Shown one piece after another: positions 1,048 to 37,771 of a stretch of 38,065 bases of DNA (positions are counted from its first letter, which is position 1; each line of letters opens with the position of its first letter). The position numbers and the translations under genes are program-made. Origin of the DNA: an uncultured Ruminococcus sp. (GTDB lineage Bacteria > Bacillota > Clostridia > Oscillospirales > Ruminococcaceae); NCBI GenBank assembly GCA_946540705.1, contig CAMNJD010000565.1:1-38065 (forward strand). Reading direction: 5' to 3'. The notes beneath the pieces were generated by a model. That model saw only the letters and a program-made list of their open reading frames with translations, was not told the origin of the DNA and made no database searches.

Positions 1048-1857
1048 TTAACTGCCGCATCCAGACGGACACGCTCGCCGCTCTGCCGTTTCAGGCTGCC
1101 ACACTCTGTTCGCAGCTCCTCGCAGTTCCGCCATCATGATTTTGTCGAGCCGGTTTACAAGCCGCCGCACTTCCCAGATTGGTGAGAACCAGACCGGTGT
1201 ATACCAGATATCTTCGCCGTTATCGCTGTCGAGCATCGGATGCAGCAGAGAATCTCCGATTTTAATTTTTGCTGCAAAACCAAGCAACGACAATTGCACA
1301 TAACACATCATTGCAGACACCTGCGATAAATCCTGCGCAAAAAGGCAGATGTAATCCTGACCGTTCGCCCCTGAATTTATCGTCTTTCTCAAAAACTCAT
1401 TCCCCGCGGCAATCAGAAGCGCGCCGCCGCCGCAAGCACAATCGCACACAGTAACTGGCTTGATTTCTTCCAGTGTGATTTTGTCCGGGAACTGCATTTG
1501 CGCCATTGCTGCGCACACATTGTAAGGCGTAAAAAACTGCCCATGCCAGTGAGAGCCGAGATCCAGGCTCATGTAAAGATCACCGAGAAAATCCTGTTCT
1601 CGGTCAGCCTCCAACTGCATGGCGATCTCCCCGAAGATCTGCGGGAACACCTGCATTTCATCCTTCGTGTACTTGTGTACGATGCCAATATAGGCGGCTT
1701 CCCGCTTCTCACGGAAGCGGCTGTCCACCGTGTTGGAAATCGACAGTGCAAACATCGTCATGCTGTCCTGCCACAGCTCCCATAGTTGGTGCGAACCGAT
1801 CAGGGAGTTGTACATCTTGACAATCCCGGCATACTGCTGTTTAGTTACCTTTGCCAT
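1048..1857 (-). CDS. HsdM-like N6-adenine methyltransferase fragment lacking catalytic motif IV
   Basis: 269 aa from the ATG at 1857 (TAATG overlap with the recombinase stop). Has DFLGDLY...GQFFTP, motif I VCDCACGGGALL, acidic AQDLS and IKIGDSL. Where (N/D)PP(F/Y/W) is expected it reads YTPVWF, and the protein ends 44 aa later. Confidence 0.7.
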   Translation of the reverse strand: MAKVTKQQYAGIVKMYNSLIGSHQLWELWQDSMTMFALSISNTVDSRFREKREAAYIGIVHKYTKDEMQVFPQIFGEIAMQLEADREQDFLGDLYMSLDLGSHWHGQFFTPYNVCAAMAQMQFPDKITLEEIKPVTVCDCACGGGALLIAAGNEFLRKTINSGANGQDYICLFAQDLSQVSAMMCYVQLSLLGFAAKIKIGDSLLHPMLDSDNGEDIWYTPVWFSPIWEVRRLVNRLDKIMMAELRGAANRVWQPETAERRACPSGCGS

Positions 1858-2660
1858 TACCAATTCACCGCCTTGTCCACTGCATCTTTTTGTTGTTCCT
1901 GTGATTGCCGCAGATATATCTGGGTAACATTTACACTACCGTGGCCTAAAATATCTGCCAGTAATGCAATGTCGTTTTTTCTCTTCAAAAACTCGATAGC
2001 GAAGAAATGCCGAAAGGAATGTGCGTGCATCACTTCACGGGGAATGTGATATTTTTCTGCGAAGATTTTCAGCCTATTATTTACGGCTTCTTTCGACACA
2101 CCTTTACTGCGGATCGTGCGCAGGACAAGTTCATCATCGGCGAGTGCAGAGAGATATTCCTGCATTTCATCGACAAGCGATTTCGGAAAATAGATTGTTC
2201 GCATATGTGCCTTGGTCGGCATTGTAACGCTGCCTTTCTGAATATCTTTCTTTGTGATTCTCCTCGCTTCTGAGATGCGCATACCCGTCTTTGAAAGCAG
2301 CAGGATGTTGAAATACCACACAATATTGCCATCAGCTTTCAGGCCTTCTAGAAGACGCTCGACCTGCTCAGAGGTGATGACATTGTCGATGTATGTTTTC
2401 CTCTGTTCCTTAATTTGCTTGACACGCATCGGTATTTCTTTGAATTTGCAGTATTGCAGGATCGCTGTGATCCTGTTGTTGACCGTCTTTGGCTTTAGCC
2501 CTTTTTCGATCAGGCTCTGCTTGAATGCAATCAGATTCGGCTTTGTGATCTCGTCATACTGTTCCGAATACTGCTGTAATCCCGTCAAATAGACTTTAAT
2601 CGTGTTCTTGGATAATTCCTCTTCATAAAGATAGTTTCGGAATCCATCAAAGTCAATCAC
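1857..2660 (-). CDS. small XerC/D-like tyrosine recombinase (267 aa)
   Basis: Track ORF 1857..2951. Start set at GTG 2660 (AAGGAGG 9 nt upstream), just after the stop of 2665..3066. Catalytic residues are visible: MRISEA (R), HSFRH (HxxR), LGHGS (H), TQIYL (Y). AT-rich relative to neighbours. Confidence 0.85.
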   Translation of the reverse strand: MIDFDGFRNYLYEEELSKNTIKVYLTGLQQYSEQYDEITKPNLIAFKQSLIEKGLKPKTVNNRITAILQYCKFKEIPMRVKQIKEQRKTYIDNVITSEQVERLLEGLKADGNIVWYFNILLLSKTGMRISEARRITKKDIQKGSVTMPTKAHMRTIYFPKSLVDEMQEYLSALADDELVLRTIRSKGVSKEAVNNRLKIFAEKYHIPREVMHAHSFRHFFAIEFLKRKNDIALLADILGHGSVNVTQIYLRQSQEQQKDAVDKAVNW

Positions 2661-2664
2661 TTCA

Positions 2665-3066
2665 TCATTCCTCCTTACGCCACATATTCCCAGATCTTTT
2701 CTTTCTGCGGTCTCTGTCCATATTCGGAAGCGCGTTCCTGATATGATGCACCGGTGGCCTGCGATCTGTCCGGCTGTCGGCAGCGCGGATGTAACGAACC
2801 GGCTTCCAGCGCCTGCGCGGCGGTGTCTCGTATTGCTCTTGCGTAGCATCGGCAAGTGCATTACAGATATTAGGTAAGGTATCGTTAAGGAATTGACCAA
2901 TGCATTCAACGATTTTCCGAAAAGCATCCGCGATAGCCTCAACTGCTTCACGGACGGACTCTATAACCCGATCAATATGCAGCGGATACCAATAGCGCCC
3001 GATGTGAAAAAACAGATCGTCTAACATGATCCATTCGGAGCAGCTCCATTCTGTTACTTCATTCAT
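2665..3066 (-). CDS. hypothetical protein (133 aa, basic C-terminus)
   Basis: Track ORF 2665..3093. Start set at ATG 3066 (GTGAGGTG 6 nt upstream). No recognisable motif. Confidence 0.6.
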   Translation of the reverse strand: MNEVTEWSCSEWIMLDDLFFHIGRYWYPLHIDRVIESVREAVEAIADAFRKIVECIGQFLNDTLPNICNALADATQEQYETPPRRRWKPVRYIRAADSRTDRRPPVHHIRNALPNMDRDRRKKRSGNMWRKEE

Positions 3067-3558: not shown

Positions 3559-3687
3559 TCACCATCCTCCCTCGTACAGCATTATCGCAGACAGCACTGC
3601 CATATCAGCAGCAACAGCACAGCCGGCAGTTATCGCATCAACGAACGCCAAAAAAATCACTGAATAATAATCAATCGCTGTCTTCAT
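3559..3687 (-). CDS. small hydrophobic membrane protein (42 aa)
   Basis: Hand translation MKTAIDYYSVIFLAFVDAITAGCAVAADMAVLSAIMLYEGGW. GGGAG lies 5 nt upstream. Its 3-prime end supplies the RBS of the next gene. Confidence 0.45.
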   Translation of the reverse strand: MKTAIDYYSVIFLAFVDAITAGCAVAADMAVLSAIMLYEGGW

Positions 3688-4090
3688 GTGAACTCCCTTT
3701 CTTTGCCGCAAGTCTCGCAGCAGCATATCTGTAAATTTCACGCAGATGATACAGCGCGCCGGAATACAGCCGCGGAAGCTCGTCCGGATTGTCGGTGATA
3801 AACAGGCGGTTCCGGCATCCGTCCAGCATATCGCTCTCGATGTTTGCGTGCTGCCGACTCGGCGGCTTATCGTCCGGCGGAACCGGCTCGACAGGAAAGA
3901 CATCGTTCATTCCGGTGATGACAACACTGCGCGTTTTCGGATCCGACAGCTCACACTCGTAAAAGATCCCGAACTTGTCGCCCTTCCGGATGATGCAGCC
4001 GGTCAGGATATACTCTCCGTCGAGGAGCAGCCGTTCATTAAGCACCCGCACCCGCCGTCCGAGGTTCTGCTTGACCTCTGAAATATCCAT
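3671..4090 (-). CDS. hypothetical protein (139 aa)
   Basis: Track ORF 3671..4159. Start at ATG 4090 (GAGGTG 6 nt upstream, MDISEVKQNLG). Confidence 0.6.
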   Translation of the reverse strand: MDISEVKQNLGRRVRVLNERLLLDGEYILTGCIIRKGDKFGIFYECELSDPKTRSVVITGMNDVFPVEPVPPDDKPPSRQHANIESDMLDGCRNRLFITDNPDELPRLYSGALYHLREIYRYAAARLAAKKGSSHEDSD

Positions 4091-4188
4091 GCTGCTCACC
4101 TCATTCCGAGAACTGGATTTTCTGTGGATGCTTCCTTTCCCACTCCGCCGCACGGACACGGTTTCAGTTCAGCCACTGTCAGCACCTC

Positions 4189-4578
4189 CTATACGCTTTG
4201 ATATTCAAGTGATTCCATGACCGCTATATTTTCTTCTGTTGGTTCGATTCCAAGTCTGTCACATAGCTTTATGCGCAGTCTGTGTTTGACTATCACGAAA
4301 ATAAAGTTCGCAATTGCAGTGCAGCATGAATTTATCACAAGTACAGCGGCAATCTTGACAGTATCATTCATTTTGATGTTATCCACAAGCATTGTCGCAA
4401 GGATCATAAACGCGCCGAGCAGTATGTTGTATGGCGCACTTTCGACAAGGTTGATTTTTGCTGATCGTATCTCACACCATACTGGTGTCTTTCCACGCTC
4501 TATGTTCTGTTTCACACGGTCAAATTCTTTCTTGTATCGCACTAAATCCTGCTCTTTTTTGGCAAAAAGATAATACAT
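4189..4578 (-). CDS. two-pass membrane protein (129 aa), AT-rich insert
   Basis: GGAGG lies 7 nt upstream. Two hydrophobic spans (APYNILLGAFMILATMLV, VKIAAVLVINSCCTAIANFIFVIV). A sampled 60-nt line is about 37 percent GC. Confidence 0.7.
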   Translation of the reverse strand: MYYLFAKKEQDLVRYKKEFDRVKQNIERGKTPVWCEIRSAKINLVESAPYNILLGAFMILATMLVDNIKMNDTVKIAAVLVINSCCTAIANFIFVIVKHRLRIKLCDRLGIEPTEENIAVMESLEYQSV

Positions 4579-4581
4579 TCA

Positions 4582-4875
4582 TTAACCTCCGTCCATACGA
4601 GCGCCGCAATGTGGGCAGTAATCTGTTTCAAGGCATTCTCCGTCAGATCCTTCTGCATCCGTTCCGCAAGCTGTGCAGTAGCACCAGTCATCCTCATGTC
4701 TGTAATTCCACCGCCCGTGCCGCACTTCCGTCTTGATTGTGGGCATCTCTTTCACAAATTCTTCAATTAGACCTATCACTTGCACAGCAGCTTCGCCGAA
4801 TGCCGACACATATTCATCAGGCTTGATTCTTGCAAGATATGCAAGCAGGTATTTTCTGTCAATCGGTTCCAGCAT
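4582..4875 (-). CDS. zinc-ribbon-like protein (97 aa)
   Basis: AGGAGGTG lies 7 nt upstream. C-terminal CYCTAC...CPHC. Confidence 0.65.
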   Translation of the reverse strand: MLEPIDRKYLLAYLARIKPDEYVSAFGEAAVQVIGLIEEFVKEMPTIKTEVRHGRWNYRHEDDWCYCTACGTDAEGSDGECLETDYCPHCGARMDGG

Positions 4876-5143
4876 CTTCGCTCACCTCCTGTTTGAGCCA
4901 TTCAAGGTTTCCGGCAATGCATCCGTCGCCATATCCGCTATCGCATTTGCCGTTGTTGTATGCACACCGATAGCATGCTGTTCCGATTGCGCTCAACAGT
5001 TCTTCCTCGTCCGTCATCTGACGGATGCGGTCGGCGTTCGTCATAGGCTTACAATCTTCGCACAGTTCTCCGTTCACGATCAAGGCGCCGCATTTATTGC
5101 AATGCTTATACGGCTTGATCATCGACTTTCTGCTCATTGTCAT
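4859..5143 (-). CDS. zinc-ribbon-like protein (about 94 aa)
   Basis: Track ORF 4859..5275. Start at ATG 5143 or 5137, just after the rusA stop and following GAAGGAG. Contains CNKC...CEDC and further Cys pairs. Confidence 0.6.
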   Translation of the reverse strand: MTMSRKSMIKPYKHCNKCGALIVNGELCEDCKPMTNADRIRQMTDEEELLSAIGTACYRCAYNNGKCDSGYGDGCIAGNLEWLKQEVSEDAGTD

Positions 5144-5144
5144 A

Positions 5145-5657
5145 TCACTCCTTCCCAGCTCGGCATTCGCAGCCGGTACGCGGATCGCAGATAAAAAATC
5201 CGTCCAGCTTGCAAGTGCATCCTTCTGCGTCCCAGTCTGCATACACACATTCATGGCAGCCCTGCTTCTTGACATTCGGTTTCAGTTCCTCGATCCGGAC
5301 ATAGATGCCCGGCGTCGCAGACCAGAACTTTTCCGTGATGCCGGACGCGATGATGCAATCGTCTTTCCAGTAGCCGAGTTTCGTCATGATATCATTCATC
5401 GCTTTCGGCAAGTTGTCGTAATCCGGCTTGTTTGTGTACCACTCTCCGTCATAGTGCTTGCCTTTGATCGGGAACATCCACTTGACGATCAGGCGGATCG
5501 CTCCGGTGTACGGCTTCGGCGGGATGTGCCGAGCCAAGTGTGAAGTCAACTTCCCCTCTGTGTCAGCATTCGCACGGTCGTATGAGATCACCTTGCCGCC
5601 TTTCGTCTTCCCCCACCCGCGGGCTTGCTTCGTCGCAGTCGGCGGGATCATCGGCAT
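5145..5657 (-). CDS. rusA: RusA-family Holliday junction resolvase with Cys-rich C-terminal tail
   Basis: PPTATKQ N-terminus and the hallmark DYDNLPKAMNDIMTKLGYWKDD (DxDNLxKxxxD). Start at ATG 5657 or 5651 is uncertain because the RBS is weak. The tail reads CHEC...CTC...CDPRTGCEC. Confidence 0.75.
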   Translation of the reverse strand: MPMIPPTATKQARGWGKTKGGKVISYDRANADTEGKLTSHLARHIPPKPYTGAIRLIVKWMFPIKGKHYDGEWYTNKPDYDNLPKAMNDIMTKLGYWKDDCIIASGITEKFWSATPGIYVRIEELKPNVKKQGCHECVYADWDAEGCTCKLDGFFICDPRTGCECRAGKE

Positions 5658-5748
5658 GAAGAACTCTGTCACTGATTTTGCTCCCTTCTGCGCGCCGGTC
5701 TGGCAGCGCGGATATTTATGCAATATTTTTTTGGGCGCTCTCAAGCCC

Positions 5749-5942
5749 AAAAAATATATATAAATATATATACGGTTTGAGCTCAAACCTCAAATATCGG
5801 TAAAACGCCTTTTTTTGAGCTTATAGCTCAAATATCGGTAAATCGCCCTTTTTTGAGCTGAGCGCAAATATCGGTAAAATGCCGATTTTTGAGCTCACAC
5901 CTCAGAGCTCAAATCACCGATTTTTGAGCTTGCTTTGAGCCC
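5749..5942. repeat. origin-like region: AT tract, 16-bp palindrome and 3.5 tandem units of about 35 bp (iterons)
   Basis: AAAAAATATATATAAATATATATA (5749-5773). GGTTTGAGCTCAAACC (5774-5789). Units at 5789-5821, 5825-5859 and 5861-5895 share (A)GCTCAAATATCGGTAAAAnGCC...TTTTTGAGCT. A degenerate unit sits at 5906-5930 and a half-site at 5934-5940. TTTGAGCT recurs at 5776, 5814, 5852, 5888, 5923 and 5934. Confidence 0.6.
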
Positions 5943-8114
5943 ACATTTTCCGTCCCCGAACCAGAAACCGCCGTGCTCTTTCAGACGACTTCGGACGGTA
6001 TTTTCGGACACTCCGAGATATGTCATGATGTCTTTTATGTCGGCTTCGCCGTTCTGATCCACGGCACTGGAGAATGCTGTCATGATGCCGTCTTTGCGTT
6101 CCTGTTTCCGCTCCTCGTTGGTCTTCCGTTTCGGAAAATTCTTCTGCCATGTGTCGTCCGGATTGACGTCCTTCAGCGCGCCTGTCTGGTCGATGATATG
6201 GCGCGGCCACTCGAACCACACGTTCACAGACTGGAAACGCGGGAACTCTCGGAGCGTGCCCTCGATGCGCCATGCAGACTGGATATTTGTCGCCGCAACA
6301 GCTCGCTGGATGTCCTGCTGCATCAGGCTCAAACTGTTAGCTTTGAGATGATCGCGGCAGTGATCCATCATGCGGGAGCGGCTCTGCTCGTCGTCGAGAG
6401 AGACCGTGTCGCCGTAGCGATCGCCGAGAAACCGTTGCAGCCACTCCTTGCATACCGCACAGACGGCTTTGTCCTCGCGCGTCTTGCGGAGCTGTTCCGA
6501 GACCGGCAGCTCGATCATGTCCAGCAGCGCGTCAGGATCACGGGCAAAGACGCCGGAACCGGATGCTCTGTCCATAGACTTTTTACCGCCCTGCATGCCC
6601 TTGCTGTGGTGGTGGCAGTAGATCATTGCGCAGTTTGCGTCACGGCAGATCCGGTCAAACACATTGCAAAAGTGTGACATCTGTTCGGCACTGTTTTCGT
6701 CGCCGGTGATCACCTTATAGATCGGATCCAGGATGATTGCGGCGTATCCGGCTTTCTTTGCTCTGCGGATCATCGACGGTGCTAACTTGTCCATCGGCAT
6801 CGACCGTCCGCGCAGGTTCCAGACCGTCAGATTCTTTGCGTTTTTCGCCTCGACACCGTTTGCCTTGTAGACTTCCGCGATTCGGTTCCAGCAGCTTGCC
6901 TCGTCGAGCTCCAGATTGATATACAGCACTTTGCCTTGCCTGCACCGGAAGCCGAGCCATTCGCCGCCCTCCGCAATCGCAATCGCAAGTGAAATCAGCG
7001 AGAACGACTTGCCTGCTTTTGACGGTCCGGCGAGCAGCATCTTATGACCGCAGCGGAGCACGCCCTCGATCAGAGCCGGACGCAGCGGCGGAAGATGATC
7101 CTTCATTTCGTCGTAGCTGATCTCGTCCGGCAGATCGTCGGTGATCTCCTCGATGTAGTCTTTCCACTCCTCAAACGACGCCTTGCCGATGTTGGTGTCT
7201 ACGAGGTACTGCCAGTTTTCGCCGCGCTGAAAGCCAGGAAGTCTGGTCAGTCGTGACGGATTCTTGCACGCCTTGTCAATTTTCAGACCGTTTTTCTCGC
7301 AGACATCAAACATATACGCGACGCGCTGACGATACAGTTCACGGTTGTTTCCTGCGTCGATGTGACAGATTGCGTGGAGCGACTTGCCGCCGGTGTGTGT
7401 CAGCGTGACGATCGGCAATGCCAGCTCGCGCATGAGCACGTTTTGCTGCTCAATTGTCAGGCTGTCCGACTCGATCAGGACATACCGATAGTCCGTGACG
7501 TTTTCGTCTTTGATTCCCTTGCCGTCGAGCGGGTTGACACGGATCCATGCGCCGGCTCTTGTGTCAGCATCGCCGAGCACGCTGCCGATGTCGCCTTTGC
7601 ACTTTTCCAGCAGGTCGATGATCTGCCCGGCGGTACGTCCCCAGCTGCCGCGTGTCGGTGCAAGCTTTCCGTCCGTCTCGTAAACGCTGGTGACATATCC
7701 AATGTAATCGTCCGGCTCAAAACGCGCCCGCAGATACTTGATGATCTCGCTGACGTGATCGCGTGAGACCGGTCTTTGTTTGACCGGCTCCGCCTCTCCC
7801 TCGTATGAGATGATACCCTCATAGTCGATCTGTGTATAATCGTCGTTGTAGCTGTTTCCGCTGTGCGGCGGCGTCCAGCCGTGATCCTTTGCGATCTGTA
7901 CGATCGTGCCGGCTGTCACAGGCTCGGCGTTGCCCTTAAACGACTCCCACTTTTTTGCGCAATTGCCGGCTTTGTACCGGCTGTCTGCCATGCTCCATGT
8001 GTCCCAGTCTGATACTGTATATCCTTCATGCTTCAGCGCCATGCCAACCTGCACCCATTCTTCATAGGTGCATTCAGATGACGGAAGCTGTTCCAAAATC
8101 TCCAAAAGGCTCAT
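5895..8114 (-). CDS. bifunctional primase-polymerase / RepA(DnaB)-like helicase replication protein
   Basis: 739 aa. GGAGGT lies 8 nt upstream. N-terminal PriCT-2-like segment (YEEWVQVGMALKHEG...WDTWS...KKWESF). Prim-pol core (AWIRVNPL..., HTGGKSLHA). Walker A LLAGPSKAGKSF with an AAA_25-like core. C-terminal HTH. Confidence 0.85.
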   Translation of the reverse strand: MSLLEILEQLPSSECTYEEWVQVGMALKHEGYTVSDWDTWSMADSRYKAGNCAKKWESFKGNAEPVTAGTIVQIAKDHGWTPPHSGNSYNDDYTQIDYEGIISYEGEAEPVKQRPVSRDHVSEIIKYLRARFEPDDYIGYVTSVYETDGKLAPTRGSWGRTAGQIIDLLEKCKGDIGSVLGDADTRAGAWIRVNPLDGKGIKDENVTDYRYVLIESDSLTIEQQNVLMRELALPIVTLTHTGGKSLHAICHIDAGNNRELYRQRVAYMFDVCEKNGLKIDKACKNPSRLTRLPGFQRGENWQYLVDTNIGKASFEEWKDYIEEITDDLPDEISYDEMKDHLPPLRPALIEGVLRCGHKMLLAGPSKAGKSFSLISLAIAIAEGGEWLGFRCRQGKVLYINLELDEASCWNRIAEVYKANGVEAKNAKNLTVWNLRGRSMPMDKLAPSMIRRAKKAGYAAIILDPIYKVITGDENSAEQMSHFCNVFDRICRDANCAMIYCHHHSKGMQGGKKSMDRASGSGVFARDPDALLDMIELPVSEQLRKTREDKAVCAVCKEWLQRFLGDRYGDTVSLDDEQSRSRMMDHCRDHLKANSLSLMQQDIQRAVAATNIQSAWRIEGTLREFPRFQSVNVWFEWPRHIIDQTGALKDVNPDDTWQKNFPKRKTNEERKQERKDGIMTAFSSAVDQNGEADIKDIMTYLGVSENTVRSRLKEHGGFWFGDGKCGLKASSKIGDLSSEV

Positions 8115-9711
8115 AAGTTGTTACCTCCACAGGCGGGATATATTCGCTCGGAACGACGCCGTGCGGAATCTGCCAGTTGTTTGCGCTGATGCGGGAAATC
8201 ATGTTCGACGCAGCTTCAAACTGCCAAGTTCCGACATGCTGAAAACCGCGGGATTCGAGGAATCGGATCTGCTTCGGTGTCGTGAGCCCTGCCCTCTGGC
8301 GCTTTTCCAGACGCTCGATGAGCAACTTCGCCTTGCCGGCGCTCTCGATCTCGTCCGGAAAGATGCCGCGCTTTTCGAGCATTGCTTTCTGCTTGTCGGA
8401 CGGCGGTGCGCACTCCCATCCGAACGCAGGAACGTATCCGCTCAGATCCTCCGCGCAGATCGACATTTCGTATTGCAGCGGATCCACGAGCTTGCGCTTG
8501 CGCTTCTTGCACTCCGCAAGTTTCTTTGCGAGCGCTTCCTCGCGCTGCTGCTGGACTTCATCTGCTGCCGCCGCAGCCGCTTCCTCGATGTCAATTTCGC
8601 AGCCTGCATTTTCGGAGAGATCCTCTGTCATTTTTGCCGCAACCTCTTGGCTGTCGCAGATCAGGTGCGCCGGACGGCACAGCTCGTGACGCTCCGTGTG
8701 CCATAAAAAGTCAAGCAGCAGCAGATGGTCCTTGCCCTCGCAGAGCCGTGTCCCGCGCCCGACCATCTGACAGTACAGTGAGCGCACCTTTGTCGGGCGG
8801 AGAACAATCACGCAGTCAACAGACGGACAGTCCCAGCCCTCGGTCAAAAGCATCGAGTTGCAAAGCACGTTGTATTTGCCGCTGTCAAAGTCTGCGAGGA
8901 TCTCCGCACGGTCGTCAGATGTACCGTTGACCTCCGCAGCCCGGAAGCCGAAACCGTTGAGGATATCACGGAACTTTTGCGAGGTCTTGATCAGCGGCAG
9001 AAAAACAACCGTCTTGCGATCCTTGCAGTATGTCTGCATCTCCTCGGCAATCTGCATCAGGTACGGATCCAGTGCGCTGTCAAGGTCTCCAGGCTTAAAA
9101 TCGCCGCTCTGGATACCGACGCCGGAAAGATCTAGCGTCAGCGGGATCGTCACCGCCTTGATCGGTGAGAGGTATCCCTCTTTTATCGCCTGCGGCAGCG
9201 TGTACTCATAAGCAAGGCTGTCAAACACATTGCCCAGCTCGCGCATGTCTCCGCGGTCAGGTGTTGCCGTGACGCCGAGTACCTTTGCGTCGTGGAAGTG
9301 TTCGAGCACCCGCTGATAGCTGTCTGATACGGCGTGATGCGCCTCGTCGATGATGATTGTGTCAAAGTAGTCCTCCGGAAACTTTTGCAGGCGCGTCTCA
9401 CGCATAAGCGATTGCACCGAGCCGACCGTGATCCGGAACCACGAGCCGAGACAGGATTGCTCAGCCTTTTCGGTCGCGCATTGTAAGCCGGTTGATTTTT
9501 TGATTTTGTCAGCAGCCTGGTCAAGCAGCTCTCCGCGGTGTGCGAGGATCAGCACACGGTCGCCAAGTCTCACGCAGTCCTCCGTGATCTTGGCAAAGAC
9601 GATCGTCTTACCGCAACCCGTAGGCAGGACGAGCAGCGTGCGTGTGTTGCCTTGCTGCCACTCGTCCTGCACTGCCACTCGTGCAGCCTGCTGGTATGGT
9701 CTCAGCTCCAT
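8074..9711 (-). CDS. SF2 DEAD/DEAH-box helicase (ResIII + Helicase_C type)
   Basis: 545 aa. LRPYQ, PTGCGKT (motif I), IIDEAH (motif II), VTATP (motif III), QMVGRGTR (motif VI). About 170 aa of C-terminal extension. Confidence 0.85.
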   Translation of the reverse strand: MELRPYQQAARVAVQDEWQQGNTRTLLVLPTGCGKTIVFAKITEDCVRLGDRVLILAHRGELLDQAADKIKKSTGLQCATEKAEQSCLGSWFRITVGSVQSLMRETRLQKFPEDYFDTIIIDEAHHAVSDSYQRVLEHFHDAKVLGVTATPDRGDMRELGNVFDSLAYEYTLPQAIKEGYLSPIKAVTIPLTLDLSGVGIQSGDFKPGDLDSALDPYLMQIAEEMQTYCKDRKTVVFLPLIKTSQKFRDILNGFGFRAAEVNGTSDDRAEILADFDSGKYNVLCNSMLLTEGWDCPSVDCVIVLRPTKVRSLYCQMVGRGTRLCEGKDHLLLLDFLWHTERHELCRPAHLICDSQEVAAKMTEDLSENAGCEIDIEEAAAAAADEVQQQREEALAKKLAECKKRKRKLVDPLQYEMSICAEDLSGYVPAFGWECAPPSDKQKAMLEKRGIFPDEIESAGKAKLLIERLEKRQRAGLTTPKQIRFLESRGFQHVGTWQFEAASNMISRISANNWQIPHGVVPSEYIPPVEVTTYEPFGDFGTASVI

Positions 9712-17513: not shown

Positions 17514-17542
17514 ATTATATCCACATTTTGTGGATATGTCAA
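17514..17542 (-). promoter_or_regulatory. early (cro-side) promoter TTGACA-17-TATAAT
   Basis: On the minus strand the -35 TTGACA is at 17537-17542 and the -10 TATAAT at 17514-19, with a 17-nt spacer that contains operator 1. Confidence 0.75.
17517..17537. promoter_or_regulatory. operator 1: ATATCCACA-TTT-TGTGGATAT (perfect 9-bp arms)
   Basis: Read directly. Lies inside the spacer of the cro-side promoter. Confidence 0.7.
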
Positions 17543-17549
17543 GATGCAT

Positions 17550-17566
17550 GTCCACATTTTGTAGAC
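17550..17566. promoter_or_regulatory. operator 2: GTCCACA-TTT-TGTAGAC (one arm mismatch)
   Basis: Read directly. Lies between the two divergent promoters. Confidence 0.55.
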
Positions 17567-17590
17567 TTGCTAAGTTTCAACACAGAATCG

Positions 17591-18219: not shown

Positions 18220-19032
18220 ATGGGCATTTTTGATAAGCTGAAAAATGCTATGAGTCAAGCAAAGCAAGCGACGGCAGCTCCAGCAAAAGCGCCAGAACCC
18301 AAAAAGCTAAGTTACAGCGAACGAGAAGCGATATATCGCCAGAACAAAATCAATGAATTCCGCGAGATCCTGTCCGGTCTCCGGAAGGTCAAAATTGAAT
18401 TAAGCGAGGAAAAGCGCAATCGAAACAATGCGATTGAGATGCCGGAGATATCTCCAAAAAACATTACGAAATCAACAAATCTATCAAAGCTGCGCGATTT
18501 TATCGCAATCGACACCGAGACGACCGGTCTGAAGCCTGGCGGAAATGATGTAATCGAAGTGTCCGCCGTCCTCTTTCACGACTTCGAGCCTGTTGAAGCG
18601 TTCTCGACGCTGATTAAGCCGAGAAAACCGATCCCGCCGGATGCCACTGCTGTAAACGGCATCACAGACGATATGGTGCAGGATGCTCCAAGATTCTACG
18701 AGATCGCGCCTGCGCTCGAAGCGTATCTCAAAAAGTTGCCGCTTGTCGGGCATAACATTGCTTTTGATTTGCGGCATCTGTTTGTAAACGGTCTCGGCTC
18801 TGTTGATCAACATGTAATCTACGATACACTTGCACTCAGCAAAAAATTTTGTGATGATGATATACTTGATTACAAACTCGCAACCGTATGCAAAGAGTAT
18901 CTGATATACATGGACGATGCCCACAGAGCGACCGCTGACGCGCTGGCTTGCGGACTGCTTTTTGTCAGTTTTATTTTGCAGTCGCGCGACGATTGCTATG
19001 ATATCGGAGATCTGATAAGCAAATGCGGCTAA
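18220..19032 (+). CDS. DEDDh (DnaQ/epsilon-like) 3-5 exonuclease with about 95-aa unknown N-terminal extension
   Basis: Start at ATG 18220 (AAAGGTGG 5 nt upstream). ExoI FIAIDTETTGL, ExoII LVGHNIAFDLRHL, ExoIII HRATADALA. Confidence 0.8.
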   Translation: MGIFDKLKNAMSQAKQATAAPAKAPEPKKLSYSEREAIYRQNKINEFREILSGLRKVKIELSEEKRNRNNAIEMPEISPKNITKSTNLSKLRDFIAIDTETTGLKPGGNDVIEVSAVLFHDFEPVEAFSTLIKPRKPIPPDATAVNGITDDMVQDAPRFYEIAPALEAYLKKLPLVGHNIAFDLRHLFVNGLGSVDQHVIYDTLALSKKFCDDDILDYKLATVCKEYLIYMDDAHRATADALACGLLFVSFILQSRDDCYDIGDLISKCG

Positions 19033-19055
19033 GTGCCAAGCAAAGGGGTGATCCT

Positions 19056-20108
19056 ATGGCAAAAGCAAAGAAACTGCCGTCAGGGAGCTGGAGTGTGAAC
19101 CAGTTCATAGGCATGGATCAGAACGGCAAGCGCATATACAAGCGCTTCACCGCGCCCACAAAGCGCGAGGCGGAGTATCTTGCAGCGGAGTATGTTGCAA
19201 AGAAAAAGCGCCCAGTCGAACGGATGACCGTCGGCGAGGCGATAGACAGGTATATTGAAAGCAAGGACGGCGTACTCTCGCCGACCACAGTAAACGGATA
19301 CCGGAATCTCCGGAACAATCATTTTGCAGGGCTTATGGACATCCGGATCGACCGGATCACGCGGGAAGATGTGCAACGTGAAGTGAACAGTGAGTCAAAG
19401 CGGTTCAGTGCGAAAACAGTCATCAATGCGCACGGCCTGCTCGCTGCAGCGCTTGCTATGCATAATCCTGATTTCGTTCTGCGGACTACCCTGCCCCGCA
19501 AAGTCAAGCAGCTCAAGCGTGACCTGCCGACCTCTGAGGACGTCATCAGAGCCATTCGTGGCAATCCTGTGGAGCTTCCTGTACTGTTGGCTATGTGTCT
19601 GTGTCTGCGTCTCTCAGAGGTCAGAGGCGTGCGCAGAAGCGCTGTAGAAGGCGATCGGCTTCGCATTGACCGTGTGATTGTGACAGTCAAAGGCGCTCAC
19701 ATCGAGAAGGAGCTGCCGAAGACGGATGCGTCCCGGCGATATGTTGACATTCCGCCGTTTCTGCGTGACATGATTCTGGCATCAGAGACGGAGTATATCA
19801 CAACACTGACAGGCCGTGCGATCTACGGGCGTTTCGTCAACGCCATGAAGAAAGCAGGCTTTGAAGGTGTACGCTTCCATGACCTGCGACATATCTCCGC
19901 AAGCGATATGCACGCGCTTGGGATCTCTGACCGTGTTGCAGCAGAGCGCGGCGGATGGGCAGGCACTCAGACTATGCAGCAGGTCTACCAGCACAGCTTT
20001 TCCGTTGACCGCCGGAAGGCAGACAAGAAGATGTGCGAATACTACGAAAAGCTGATAAATGCAACACGAAATGCAACACGCGACATCGAAACCAACGAAT
20101 CTACGTAG
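19056..20108 (+). CDS. int: phage tyrosine integrase
   Basis: Start at ATG 19056 (350 aa). N-terminal SAM-like core-binding region. LRLSEVRG (R), HDLRH (HxxR), GGWAG, QQVYQH (Y). Ends 9 nt before the tRNA-like att core. Confidence 0.9.
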   Translation: MAKAKKLPSGSWSVNQFIGMDQNGKRIYKRFTAPTKREAEYLAAEYVAKKKRPVERMTVGEAIDRYIESKDGVLSPTTVNGYRNLRNNHFAGLMDIRIDRITREDVQREVNSESKRFSAKTVINAHGLLAAALAMHNPDFVLRTTLPRKVKQLKRDLPTSEDVIRAIRGNPVELPVLLAMCLCLRLSEVRGVRRSAVEGDRLRIDRVIVTVKGAHIEKELPKTDASRRYVDIPPFLRDMILASETEYITTLTGRAIYGRFVNAMKKAGFEGVRFHDLRHISASDMHALGISDRVAAERGGWAGTQTMQQVYQHSFSVDRRKADKKMCEYYEKLINATRNATRDIETNEST

Positions 20109-20116
20109 CGTTTCGC

Positions 20117-20140
20117 GGGGTTCGATTCCCCTCACCTGCT
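20117..20140 (+). other. tRNA 3-prime-end-like fragment (T-arm plus acceptor strand), probable att core
   Basis: GGGG-TTCGATT-CCCC T CACCTGC T is a canonical T-stem/T-loop followed by 7 nt plus a discriminator. No matching 5-prime half upstream. Confidence 0.6.
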
Positions 20141-20145
20141 TATTT

Positions 20146-20193
20146 AAAAACCGCTGTATTTGCGTGATTTCAGCGCAGGTACGGCGGTTTTTA
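20146..20193 (+). terminator. rho-independent terminator after int / att core
   Basis: AAAAACCGCTGTA...TACGGCGGTTTTT. 9-bp outer stem with one G-U pair, inner TGCG/CGCA pairing, T-run at 20188-20192. Confidence 0.6.
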
Positions 20194-20283
20194 TGTTGCA
20201 TATATGTTGCAGAATATAAGCATTTTTGAATCAAAAACAAGCATTTTTAAGAGGAATGCAACACGAAATGCAACACGAAAAAC

Positions 20284-20322
20284 AACCGACAGCGGATGAG
20301 CTCCCCTGCCGGTTTTTCTTTT
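20284..20322 (+). terminator. rho-independent terminator upstream of the accessory cassette
   Basis: AACCGACAG-13 nt-CTGCCGGTT with one A.C mismatch, followed by TTTTTCTTTT. Confidence 0.55.
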
Positions 20323-36109: not shown

Positions 36110-37771
36110 TCAGTATGTCCATACGCCGGAAACTACCGGTTCAGCAGTTTTCGCATTTGCGTATGCGTCCAGCACATCTGAAATGCACTCCGCGGCGACG
36201 AACGCCTTGAACGTGTCTGTCTTCCGGCTTTTCGGCTCAATCTTGCCGTATGTGATATTGCCGGACGGTGATGTTATTGTCTTACTGTTGTTCGTCATCC
36301 ACCGCATCACCGGCGAATCTCCCCAGACGAAACGATGCCCAACAAAGCCACTTGTGATCAGCGGGATCCTGCGCATTTCATCTCTTGGACGGATGAGCAG
36401 CACGTTCCGGCGATCCTTATCAGCGTAAAAGTTGATTTCTTCCAGCGCGTTCTTCATCAGTGCAAACCGGTAATCGTCTATGCCGGCAAGCAGCATCGGC
36501 GCATTTCGCTTTGCTGCTTCGTTTGCCAGCCAGACGCACGGCAGCTCCGGCGGGATCTCGACGGCATCGACAAATGTCACAAGCCCGCGGGCTTCCCATT
36601 CCCGCAGCGGCGCCTTGATCCGTTTCAAATCCGCACACTGGTTGCAGATCCATGTGTGCGAAATCCAGATATCCCGATTGCCGACGCGCCAGAGCAGACC
36701 GGCGCCGAGGAAGTCGGTAGTTTTCATGTAGTCGATGCCGATCACGCACGGTCTGCCGATCAGATCCGCCTCCTGGATTTCCTGATTCGTGGCGAGAATA
36801 TCCTCCCACGAGGCGACACCGTTCTCGCGGATCTTCGGCGGGCGGTTCATGCGCTTCGTGATAAATGCGGTATTGCTTGCCGGATTGCGCTTGTACTCCG
36901 CAAACTCGGTGCGCATCTGTTCGAGCAGCGTCGGCAGATACCGCAGCGACGGATTTGCTTTGTGCCACATACGCTCGTCATAGGCTTCCTCGTCCGCATC
37001 GAGCCGGCAGATAAACACCAGCATGCCGTTGTCAGGCTCATCACCGTCGAGGATTGCTTCCCCTTGCTCGATCTTGTCATCGAGCGGACCGCCGCGGACA
37101 TCGCCGTCTGTTGTCGTCCATGTCTGGCGCGGAAATCGCTTTTTGCCGAGACCGGTTGTGGCAACCGTAATCAGCTTGTAGTTTTCGTATGCGTGGATCT
37201 CGTCAAGATCGATCTTGCCGGGACGTGCACCGTCTTTCGTCTTGCTGTTCGACGTTCGAAACTGGAACTTTGATCCGGTGTCTGTGCATGTGATCAGCTC
37301 TTTCGTCCAGCGGAAGTGCTTCCGCATCTTCTGCTTGTTGGCTTCGAGCACGTTCCAGACGTCCGTGAACGACTGCTTTGCCTGGTCTTCTGATGTCGCA
37401 AAAATGTCGATGTCGTATTCCGGCACGCCGTTGGTCGCGGTCAGCAGACAAAAGTCCTCAAATCCGAGATACCCGTTCTTGCCGGCTCCGCGACCTACAT
37501 ACACAAACGCGATCGGGAACCGTAACTGACCGTCTGCACGGTATGTGCAATTGTGCAGCGCAAAAATGAATTTTTCCCACGGGAAGAGCTCGAACGGGAA
37601 GTATTTTTCATAGCTCAGATACTCTGCAAGCTGGTCGGTGTTGATCGTCAGTGTTTCTGTTGCGAAGACCCGTTCCACAAAATCGCAGAGTTTCAGCTGC
37701 TCCTTGCAGACCGCGTATTCGCCGCCGCGCACGATGCGAATATAGTCATCAATTTCTTTACAGCCGGTCAT
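36110..37771 (-). CDS. terL: terminase large subunit (Terminase_1)
   Basis: 553 aa. Walker A-like VGRGAGKNG. The C-terminal half resembles an RNaseH-like nuclease. Overlaps terS by 14 nt. Confidence 0.9.
   Translation of the reverse strand: MTGCKEIDDYIRIVRGGEYAVCKEQLKLCDFVERVFATETLTINTDQLAEYLSYEKYFPFELFPWEKFIFALHNCTYRADGQLRFPIAFVYVGRGAGKNGYLGFEDFCLLTATNGVPEYDIDIFATSEDQAKQSFTDVWNVLEANKQKMRKHFRWTKELITCTDTGSKFQFRTSNSKTKDGARPGKIDLDEIHAYENYKLITVATTGLGKKRFPRQTWTTTDGDVRGGPLDDKIEQGEAILDGDEPDNGMLVFICRLDADEEAYDERMWHKANPSLRYLPTLLEQMRTEFAEYKRNPASNTAFITKRMNRPPKIRENGVASWEDILATNQEIQEADLIGRPCVIGIDYMKTTDFLGAGLLWRVGNRDIWISHTWICNQCADLKRIKAPLREWEARGLVTFVDAVEIPPELPCVWLANEAAKRNAPMLLAGIDDYRFALMKNALEEINFYADKDRRNVLLIRPRDEMRRIPLITSGFVGHRFVWGDSPVMRWMTNNSKTITSPSGNITYGKIEPKSRKTDTFKAFVAAECISDVLDAYANAKTAEPVVSGVWTY

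Follow-up and report, generated by a model that had tools for sequence, protein, structure and literature searches.

The 38,065-nt stretch of DNA analysed here over its full length (the window; uncultured Ruminococcus sp., contig CAMNJD010000565.1 of assembly GCA_946540705.1) is a complete-looking temperate siphovirus genome, in which positions 1048 to 2660 hold two overlapping genes, one for a short tyrosine recombinase (here called B) and one for an HsdM-like protein (here called H). Profile comparisons and structural modelling support the view that H is the repurposed S-adenosylmethionine (SAM)-binding half of an HsdM-type (gamma-class) adenine methylase, and the spread and constancy of its family establish it as a stable, conserved half-enzyme and not a remnant. 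B is, to judge from its sequence, an active-looking small tyrosine recombinase of a sister clade to the PsrA/CreX hsdS invertases. The linkage of B and H is real and recurrent, not obligatory, and the locus, which closes the early (replication) operon of a temperate Oscillospiraceae/Ruminococcus phage, carries two separable accessory genes. We tentatively prefer the reading, to which we give a probability of about 0.45, that H binds SAM without methylating and serves in establishment or against restriction, B being a separable recombinase for inversion or resolution.

The half-methylase H and its family

H is read from the window as an open reading frame (ORF) of 269 aa (1857–1048, minus strand), which matches Pfam N6_Mtase (PF02384; 1.5e-09; 38.1 bits, cut-off 20.4) over profile positions 24–144 of 311 only. 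All the motifs quoted in the first-pass annotation of this DNA are present on the minus strand, namely motif X GQFFTP (1542–1525), motif I VCDCACGGGALL (DCACGGGALL; 1449–1414), motif II AQDLS (1338–1324) and motif III GDSL within IKIGDSL (1266–1246), and the NPPF position is taken by YTPVWF (1203–1186, within the segment WYTPVWF); as that annotation also held, no alternative frame restores NPPF. A profile match to EcoR124II HsdM in the PDB (2.7e-07) stops before motif IV, the score against the NCBIfam hsdM model TIGR00497 is 15.7 bits (cut-off 242.75), and the conserved N-domain of H has no match to HsdM_N of Pfam. Searched with known defence and anti-defence models (PADLOC, NCBIfam), the locus gave weak partial methylase matches only.

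In the AlphaFold (AF2) model of H (predicted local distance difference test score 86, predicted template modelling score 0.83) a helical domain (residues 7–97) and the motif X loop are followed by strands at 135–140, 170–177, 195–200 and 217–219, which are strands 1–4 only, and by one long terminal helix; strands 5–7 of the class I methylase fold are absent, and there are no motifs V–VIII. The comparison with HsdM that had been proposed, by profile and by structure, returned HsdM subunits as the best solved-structure matches, by sequence profile (EcoR124II) and, weakly, by fold (3LKD, PacII, 3KHK). With these as the best matches a non-methylase fold such as that of a SAM lyase was rejected, and a fold search for SAM lyases or hydrolases gave no match. 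In class I amino-methylases the contacts to SAM are made by motifs X and I–III together with strand 4 (the scheme of Malone, Blumenthal and Cheng), and motifs IV–VIII form the target-base pocket. Because motifs X and I–III and strands 1–4 are kept and motifs IV–VIII are gone, we infer from the sequence that H binds SAM without methylating adenine. The earlier option of a repurposed SAM-binding module finds support in both structure and evolution.

H matches PHROG 5696, a family of unknown function, almost from end to end (E = 5.6e-75; residues 7–241 on profile positions 18–244 of 250). A word-indexed search returned 974 relatives, the best 120 all of 211–261 aa, and an exhaustive profile search over 1.84 billion cluster representatives (clusters at 50% identity) returned 748 clusters at E ≤ 1e-30, or 2,837 with the limit relaxed to 1e-10; the interquartile range of length among the 150 best matches is 243–305 aa. 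Across 36 H sequences, down to 55% identity, 60 columns are invariant, including HW.GQFFTPY, D.ACGGGA, QD.S and WYTP..F...W..RR, and residues G201, D202 and S203 of motif III are nearly so. The pattern [NDS]PP[FYW] occurs nowhere in the 185 family ORFs of the fetched loci or in 149 cluster representatives, and the NPPF position reads W[YF]TP[MFGVI]. The ratio of non-synonymous to synonymous substitution (dN/dS), taken pairwise between H and eight relatives, is 0.04–0.15, with synonymous sites near saturation; the truncated form is therefore conserved under purifying selection elsewhere, a point on which the first-pass annotation had wanted a check. Its suggestion of a decayed remnant does not survive the full-length PHROG match, the roughly 750 clusters, these dN/dS values and the constant architecture. 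Literature searches on PHROG 5696, on the accession of the plasmid H protein and on the function of PcfK yielded nothing useful.

The C-terminus of the window's own copy is aberrant. Alignment with the 99%-identical locus L104 reveals a 31-bp deletion, with its junction near 1131/1132, which takes out the native stop of H and the start of a 45-aa ORF, so that the native end ...KIMMRANA is replaced by 27 out-of-frame residues. The native part (residues 1–242; 1132..1857, minus strand) comprises the N-terminal helical domain, motifs X, I, II and III and the C-terminal helix, and the non-native 27-aa tail with its stop (1048..1131, minus strand) runs into the remnant of the 45-aa gene; in L104 the recombinase (267 aa) and H (249 aa) are followed by ORFs of 45 and 41 aa and by one for a sigma-like protein of 130 aa. 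Natively, H is about 245–250 aa long and its C-terminus lies about 25 residues past the WYTP segment. The 44 aa said to follow the motif position are thus partly an artefact of the window copy; the deletion itself may be genuine or may stem from misassembly.

Relatives of H are found in at least 559 IMG/VR viral contigs, at the ends of replication modules, in prophages of 427 bacterial species, mostly Clostridia, and in cultured Faecalibacterium and Vibrio phages; the close clade (65–75% identity) comes from metagenome-assembled genomes of Oscillospiraceae and Ruminococcus. Among their neighbours are SSB, primase-polymerase, SNF2 helicase, RusA, FtsK-gamma-like and ParB-like proteins, and Lar restriction-alleviation genes lie near H in two relatives. 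By tblastn the family is also present in 1,956 PLSDB plasmids, 1,381 of them conjugative, with Klebsiella, Enterobacter, Acinetobacter and Pseudomonas as the main hosts (examples are L272, L274 and L273, the last being NC_023906.1, 7815–8648), and the plasmid members have the same truncated architecture without NPPF. In the Klebsiella pneumoniae IncFII/FIB plasmid pGR-3913, H is part of the leading region and stands after psiA and before traM, the order being ssb, ParB, psiB, psiA, several small genes, H, DUF932, SLT and traM. Many phage and plasmid records label H as 'N-6 DNA methylase' or 'type I R-M methylase subunit' (R-M, restriction–modification). Plasmid leading regions concentrate anti-defence genes and 'orphan methylases', and surveys of them also list families under N-6 DNA methylase-type labels (PMC11541004). 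The anti-restriction role that may be proposed for H becomes more plausible in this context, with plasmid relatives placed in a leading region.

Longer members of the family are fusions, four to PcfK-like domains (P0210, P0142, P0144, P0150) and one to ParB_N (P0184); PcfK and ParB_N domains are typical of the establishment genes of conjugative elements and phages. At the extreme C-terminus, 32 of 148 non-redundant family ORFs end in GQL[STA][LF]F, against an expectation of 0.05 from shuffled tails, as do 17 of the 149 cluster representatives, and the motif is preceded by a Pro/Glu-rich linker (examples are L094:4986–5759, L028:5024–5929, L001:3947–4840 and P0016); it is present in L094 and L099, whose H is 73–74% identical to that of the window. 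This ending matches Q-L-x-L-F, the consensus for binding to the beta clamp (PMC4549789). Taken with the fusions and the genomic niche, the tail suggests that the family acts on replicating or newly entered mobile-element DNA, and its combination with a conserved SAM pocket would point to action at replicating DNA and not to simple mimicry of HsdR or HsdS. New in this work are the presence of H in plasmids, the clamp-binding tail in 11–22% of relatives and the PcfK and ParB_N fusions. As a separate observation, the gene that follows H in L094 (5645–6703) encodes a 352-aa protein with a radical-SAM-like CxxxCxxC motif (SRGCPRGCSFCHV) and no Pfam match.

The recombinase B, its linkage to H and the setting of the pair

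B (267 aa, GTG start; 1857..2660, minus strand) lies 9 nt downstream of an AGGAGG ribosome-binding site read from the sequence (2668..2673, minus strand). It matches Pfam Phage_integrase (PF00589; 1.3e-21; 77.6 bits) and has a core-binding N-domain and the catalytic set of the tyrosine recombinases, all on the minus strand: R128 (2279–2277), K150 (2213–2211), H214 and R217 (2021–2010), H240 (1943–1941) and Y249 (1916–1914), each of which is invariant in an alignment with PsrA-type invertases. Of its two N-terminal SAM-like domains, SAM_1 scores above cut-off and SAM_4 26.3 against a cut-off of 27. Its dN/dS is about 0.11, and its GC content of 43.2%, against 52.7% for the window, is equalled or undercut in 3% of 800-nt windows. 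The description of B as an intact, low-GC recombinase of CreX/PsrA size consequently stands, and the TAATG overlap (1855..1859, minus strand) was likewise confirmed, the stop TAA of B (1859–1857) and the ATG of H having one base (A) in common; tight or overlapping junctions also occur in relatives, whichever of the two genes leads. What finds no support is the idea that the HsdM-like gene shares the low GC of B, as one inserted block: at 51.9% GC, H is normal for the window. The two genes differ in history, because, against L095, B is 93% identical (dS 0.36) and H 72% identical, with saturated dS.

The best NCBIfam match of B is XerA (124.4 bits, cut-off 220), and XerC (91.7, cut-off 335) and XerD (87.6, cut-off 330) follow; with all three scores under cut-off, B was rejected as an equivalog of any of them. 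Its nearest cellular relatives are PsrA-type hsdS invertases (35–40% identity). All the inspected plasmid matches at 35% identity or more sit between inverted hsdS genes in phase-variable type I loci (Ruminococcus albus pRUMAL02, Mycoplasmopsis arginini, Enterococcus faecalis, Segatella hominis and PsrA of Streptococcus dysgalactiae; a Mycoplasmopsis bovirhinis match, also at 35% or more, falls outside the inspected set), and matches at 32% or less lie outside hsdS-inverton loci. The top cellular match is that of R. albus, a member of the bacterial family to which the predicted hosts belong. The lead towards phase-variable type I systems given by the first-pass annotation was a sound one in that hsdS invertases are the closest cellular relatives of B. 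B is colinear with the PsrA-type invertases from first to last residue; they are 57–72% identical among themselves, a neighbour-joining tree places B on a sister branch to the PsrA/CreX clade, and this distance, together with the lack of hsdS context, rules out membership of clade 1.

A B-like recombinase also stands before a methylase gene in Bacteroides phages (L238–L271, and L105, which is BS-TP3, 3656–5711). There a gene for a 368-aa recombinase, 38% identical to B, precedes one for a 330-aa adenine methylase in which NPPF is intact (KIIANPPFS), with PcfK/PcfJ upstream and a ParB-like gene and a methylase downstream of the pair. Profile comparison ruled out BS-TP3 gp49, a complete methylase with NPPF, as a member of the H family.

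The recombinases that accompany H fall into two families, the short type B of the window and A, a 350-aa XerA-like protein; the window carries B and no A. Of the 31 loci in which H has 55% or more identity to that of the window, 26 have a recombinase within 150 bp of it, and the gene orders B-H, H-B, B-H-A, H-B-A, A-B-H, B-A-H, H-A and A-H are all seen. Among more distant loci a recombinase adjoins H in 8 of 151, some of them A-B-H trios; in L119, L123, L127 and L147 the H protein is 44–46% and the recombinases about 40% identical to the references (H and B of the window, A of L092). In L066 and L069 an A-B pair lies about 3 kb downstream of H. L098 is syntenic with the window, with H present and B absent, and the plasmid homologues of H that were inspected have no adjacent recombinase. 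The pair is accordingly not an obligatory one, as each gene is common without the other (no recombinase adjoins H in 143 of the 151 distant loci, and 18 of the 30 close B loci lack a nearby H).

The B-H-A trio of L095 sits exactly between two copies of a 141-nt direct repeat corresponding to the 5' end of a RusA-like gene (3948–4088 and 6796–6936, 87% identical, with the central 88 nt nearly identical), and L096 has the same arrangement of genes, a fragment of a RusA-like gene lying upstream and the complete one downstream. The repeat may be either a scar of the att type or a joint in a mosaic of two phages; a degenerate core pattern for the empty site had no match in IMG/VR. Flanking repeats were found around the pair in none of the window, L104, L092 and L094. 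The window also holds an 18-nt inverted repeat (17 of 18 matching), with one arm inside H (1586–1603, codons REQDFL) and the other intergenic (4106–4123), upstream of a gene that starts near 4090; it is common to the near-identical L104 only, is not in L095, and as a B target was set aside as chance, since inversion would only break H.

Downstream of the pair are genes for a 41-aa membrane peptide, a sigma-70 region 4-like regulator and an HNH nuclease (19–474), and with these there, supply of the catalytic half by a downstream gene was ruled out. The absence of hsdS and hsdR that had been reported was upheld: tblastn with four HsdS proteins found no match in the window or the phage loci retrieved by then, the window has no hsdR, and its 545-aa ResIII/SNF2 protein (8074–9711) is a helicase of the replication module. 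Elsewhere in the window are genes for the primase/helicase (5895–8114), a second integrase of 361 aa (19023–20108), within a low-GC lysogeny block, and the large terminase (36110–37771). Promoter and terminator scans gave nothing over shuffled background. Directly upstream of the primase/helicase gene, at 5791–5931, three to four tandem repeats of 36–38 nt (CAAATATCGGTAAAA.GCC.TTTTTGAGCT) look like replication-origin iterons; AATGCAACACG repeats at and after the 3' end of the 361-aa integrase gene (20058–20289) may be arm-type sites near attP; and two adjoining ATATCCACAnnnnTGTGGATAT-like palindromes in the divergent lysogeny-switch region (17517–17578) may be operators.

Weighing of the explanations

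Under the reading that we prefer, H belongs to a very large family, specific to mobile elements, that derives from an HsdM-type adenine methylase and has permanently lost motif IV and strands 5–7. It would bind SAM, carry out no adenine methylation and help incoming or replicating mobile-element DNA to establish, the likeliest route being interference with SAM-dependent restriction (type I/III, BREX-like), and in many relatives the clamp-binding C-terminal peptide would keep it at the replication fork. B, predicted to be co-transcribed and probably co-translated with H, and often travelling with it either alone or with the second, Xer-like recombinase A, would presumably invert or resolve phage DNA site-specifically.

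Several observations weigh against this. The N-domain of H has many invariant polar residues and so appears enzyme-like rather than decoy-like, and loss of NPPF is compatible with methyl transfer to another acceptor or with a SAM-consuming reaction. The clamp motif is absent from H of the window and of its nearest relative L104, the tailed H of the window may be impaired, and the placement of H in the leading region was inspected in one IncF plasmid. Of the 30 viral contigs whose B is at least 57% identical, 12 have H within 3 kb of it and 18 do not, and the co-location of the two genes may reflect a shared hot spot for accessory genes before the late regulator. A check proposed in the first-pass annotation, for inverted or direct repeats as recombinase targets, found none in the window, and local scans in five relatives stayed at chance level.

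H may still be an enzyme, an explanation that we consider rather unlikely. It could be a SAM-dependent transferase with a non-canonical active site formed by the conserved N-domain and a target other than adenine N6 (for instance a protein, a small molecule or some other atom of DNA), a SAM-cleaving protein, which would deplete the cofactor of restriction systems, or a half-methylase completed in trans by homodimer formation or by a host or phage partner. Such activity would suit the invariant N-domain residues W26, E27, W29, D31, D45, R47, R52, Y63, Q88, D89, H103 and W104, the retention of every SAM-contacting motif under a dN/dS of 0.04–0.15, and a replacement for NPPF that keeps an invariant Pro and mostly an aromatic residue (W[YF]TP[MFV]W). 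Tethering to the clamp is typical of DNA-acting enzymes, and there are SAM-using neighbours, such as the radical-SAM-like protein of L094 and other methylases nearby. However, strands 5–7 and motifs V–VIII, which provide the target pocket in class I amino-methylases, are absent in every member; the residue replacing N/D varies, being T mostly, M in Taranis, and S or absent in plasmid forms; the known SAM lyases and hydrolases offer no fold match; and no partner gene is conserved across the family.

It is less probable still that B and H, optionally with A, make up a small integrative or invertible cassette that passes from one phage genome to another, in which H would be cargo or an accessory or directionality factor. 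The variety of gene orders, all with tight junctions, would be expected of such a unit, as would the recurrence of the trio at 44–46% identity for H and about 40% for the recombinases, the attL/attR-like repeat that brackets B-H-A in L095, with the same layout in L096, the synteny of L098 with the window minus B, and the deviant GC of B. Yet most distant H loci (143 of 151) and the inspected plasmid homologues have no adjacent recombinase, H is not found within 3 kb of B in 18 of its 30 close loci, and the discordant divergence of B and H implies that the two recombine apart; the window, L104, L092 and L094 are without flanking repeats, and that of L095 is equally well a mosaic joint. We regard as very unlikely a counter-measure against phase-variable type I R-M systems of the host, in which B would rearrange host hsdS invertons and a SAM-loaded but catalytically dead H, tethered to the clamp in relatives, would poison, titrate or mis-assemble Hsd complexes (HsdS/HsdR) on phage DNA under replication; more broadly, the 'N-6 DNA methylase' of phage early and plasmid leading regions would then stand for a new class of anti-restriction protein that binds a cofactor and is not an enzyme. 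The nearest cellular relatives of B are all hsdS invertases, with that of R. albus at the top, H derives from HsdM, and a B-like recombinase stands beside an adenine methylase in Bacteroides phages too. In HsdM, however, it is the C-terminal helices that bind HsdS, in keeping with the architecture of type I enzymes, and the model of H is without them; B is only in a sister clade, at 35–40% identity compared with 57–72% among true hsdS invertases across phyla; a switch of hsdS allele leaves the pre-existing enzyme in place within one infection cycle; and H occurs mostly without B. As to the idea that the pair is what decay has left of a type I R-M locus once captured, with H pseudogene-like, the absence of hsdS, hsdR and the catalytic motif and the altered C-terminus of the window copy are what it would predict, but for the family it is refuted by an architecture that stays the same throughout, by purifying selection and by the thousands of intact relatives that phages and plasmids carry, and we give it next to no credence.

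Significance and comparison with known systems

A widespread gene that is labelled a methylase thus cannot be a conventional one, as it keeps the cofactor pocket only. If H is an anti-restriction or establishment factor, it is one common to gut phages and clinically important conjugative plasmids and would, if so, open a new way into the question of how mobile DNA evades defences that depend on SAM, and the clamp-binding tail offers a directly testable hypothesis on where H acts.

B resembles the clade-1 invertases PsrA, CreX and IvrR (PMC7672463) in its length of about 267 aa, its colinearity, its R-K-H-R-H-Y catalytic set and its C-terminal ...VNW. It differs from them in lying in phage early operons, with neither flanking inverted hsdS genes nor a detectable inverted repeat, and in being often accompanied by a second, Xer-like recombinase. 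The side-by-side occurrence of A and B in many relatives recalls XerC/XerD pairs and Cre-like phage resolvases and would fit a heteromeric resolvase or a part in resolving or circularising the genome; unlike the Xer pairs, B of the window is alone, its Xer scores are under cut-off, and no dif- or lox-like site was found.

H shares with HsdM (PF02384; 3LKD, 7BST, 3KHK, PacII M) motifs X, I (D.ACGGG) and III (GDSL), the acid of motif II and a preceding helical domain, but at about 250 aa, against about 500 aa for HsdM, it has no motif IV, strands 5–7, motifs V–VIII, HsdS-binding helices or hsdS/hsdR partner. M.EcoGIX is a single-strand-specific methylase of a leading region (PMC7736820), and both it and M.BceJIII are complete beta-class enzymes with DPPY, whereas H is a gamma-class half without such a motif; a place for H in the M.EcoGIX-type family of single-strand methylases was ruled out on this ground, and its motif content indicates that it is probably not a methylase at all. 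With the orphan methylases of phages and plasmid leading regions (PMC7736820; PMC11541004) H nevertheless has in common its niche, its link to replication, its database label and, presumably, its purpose, that of getting past restriction.

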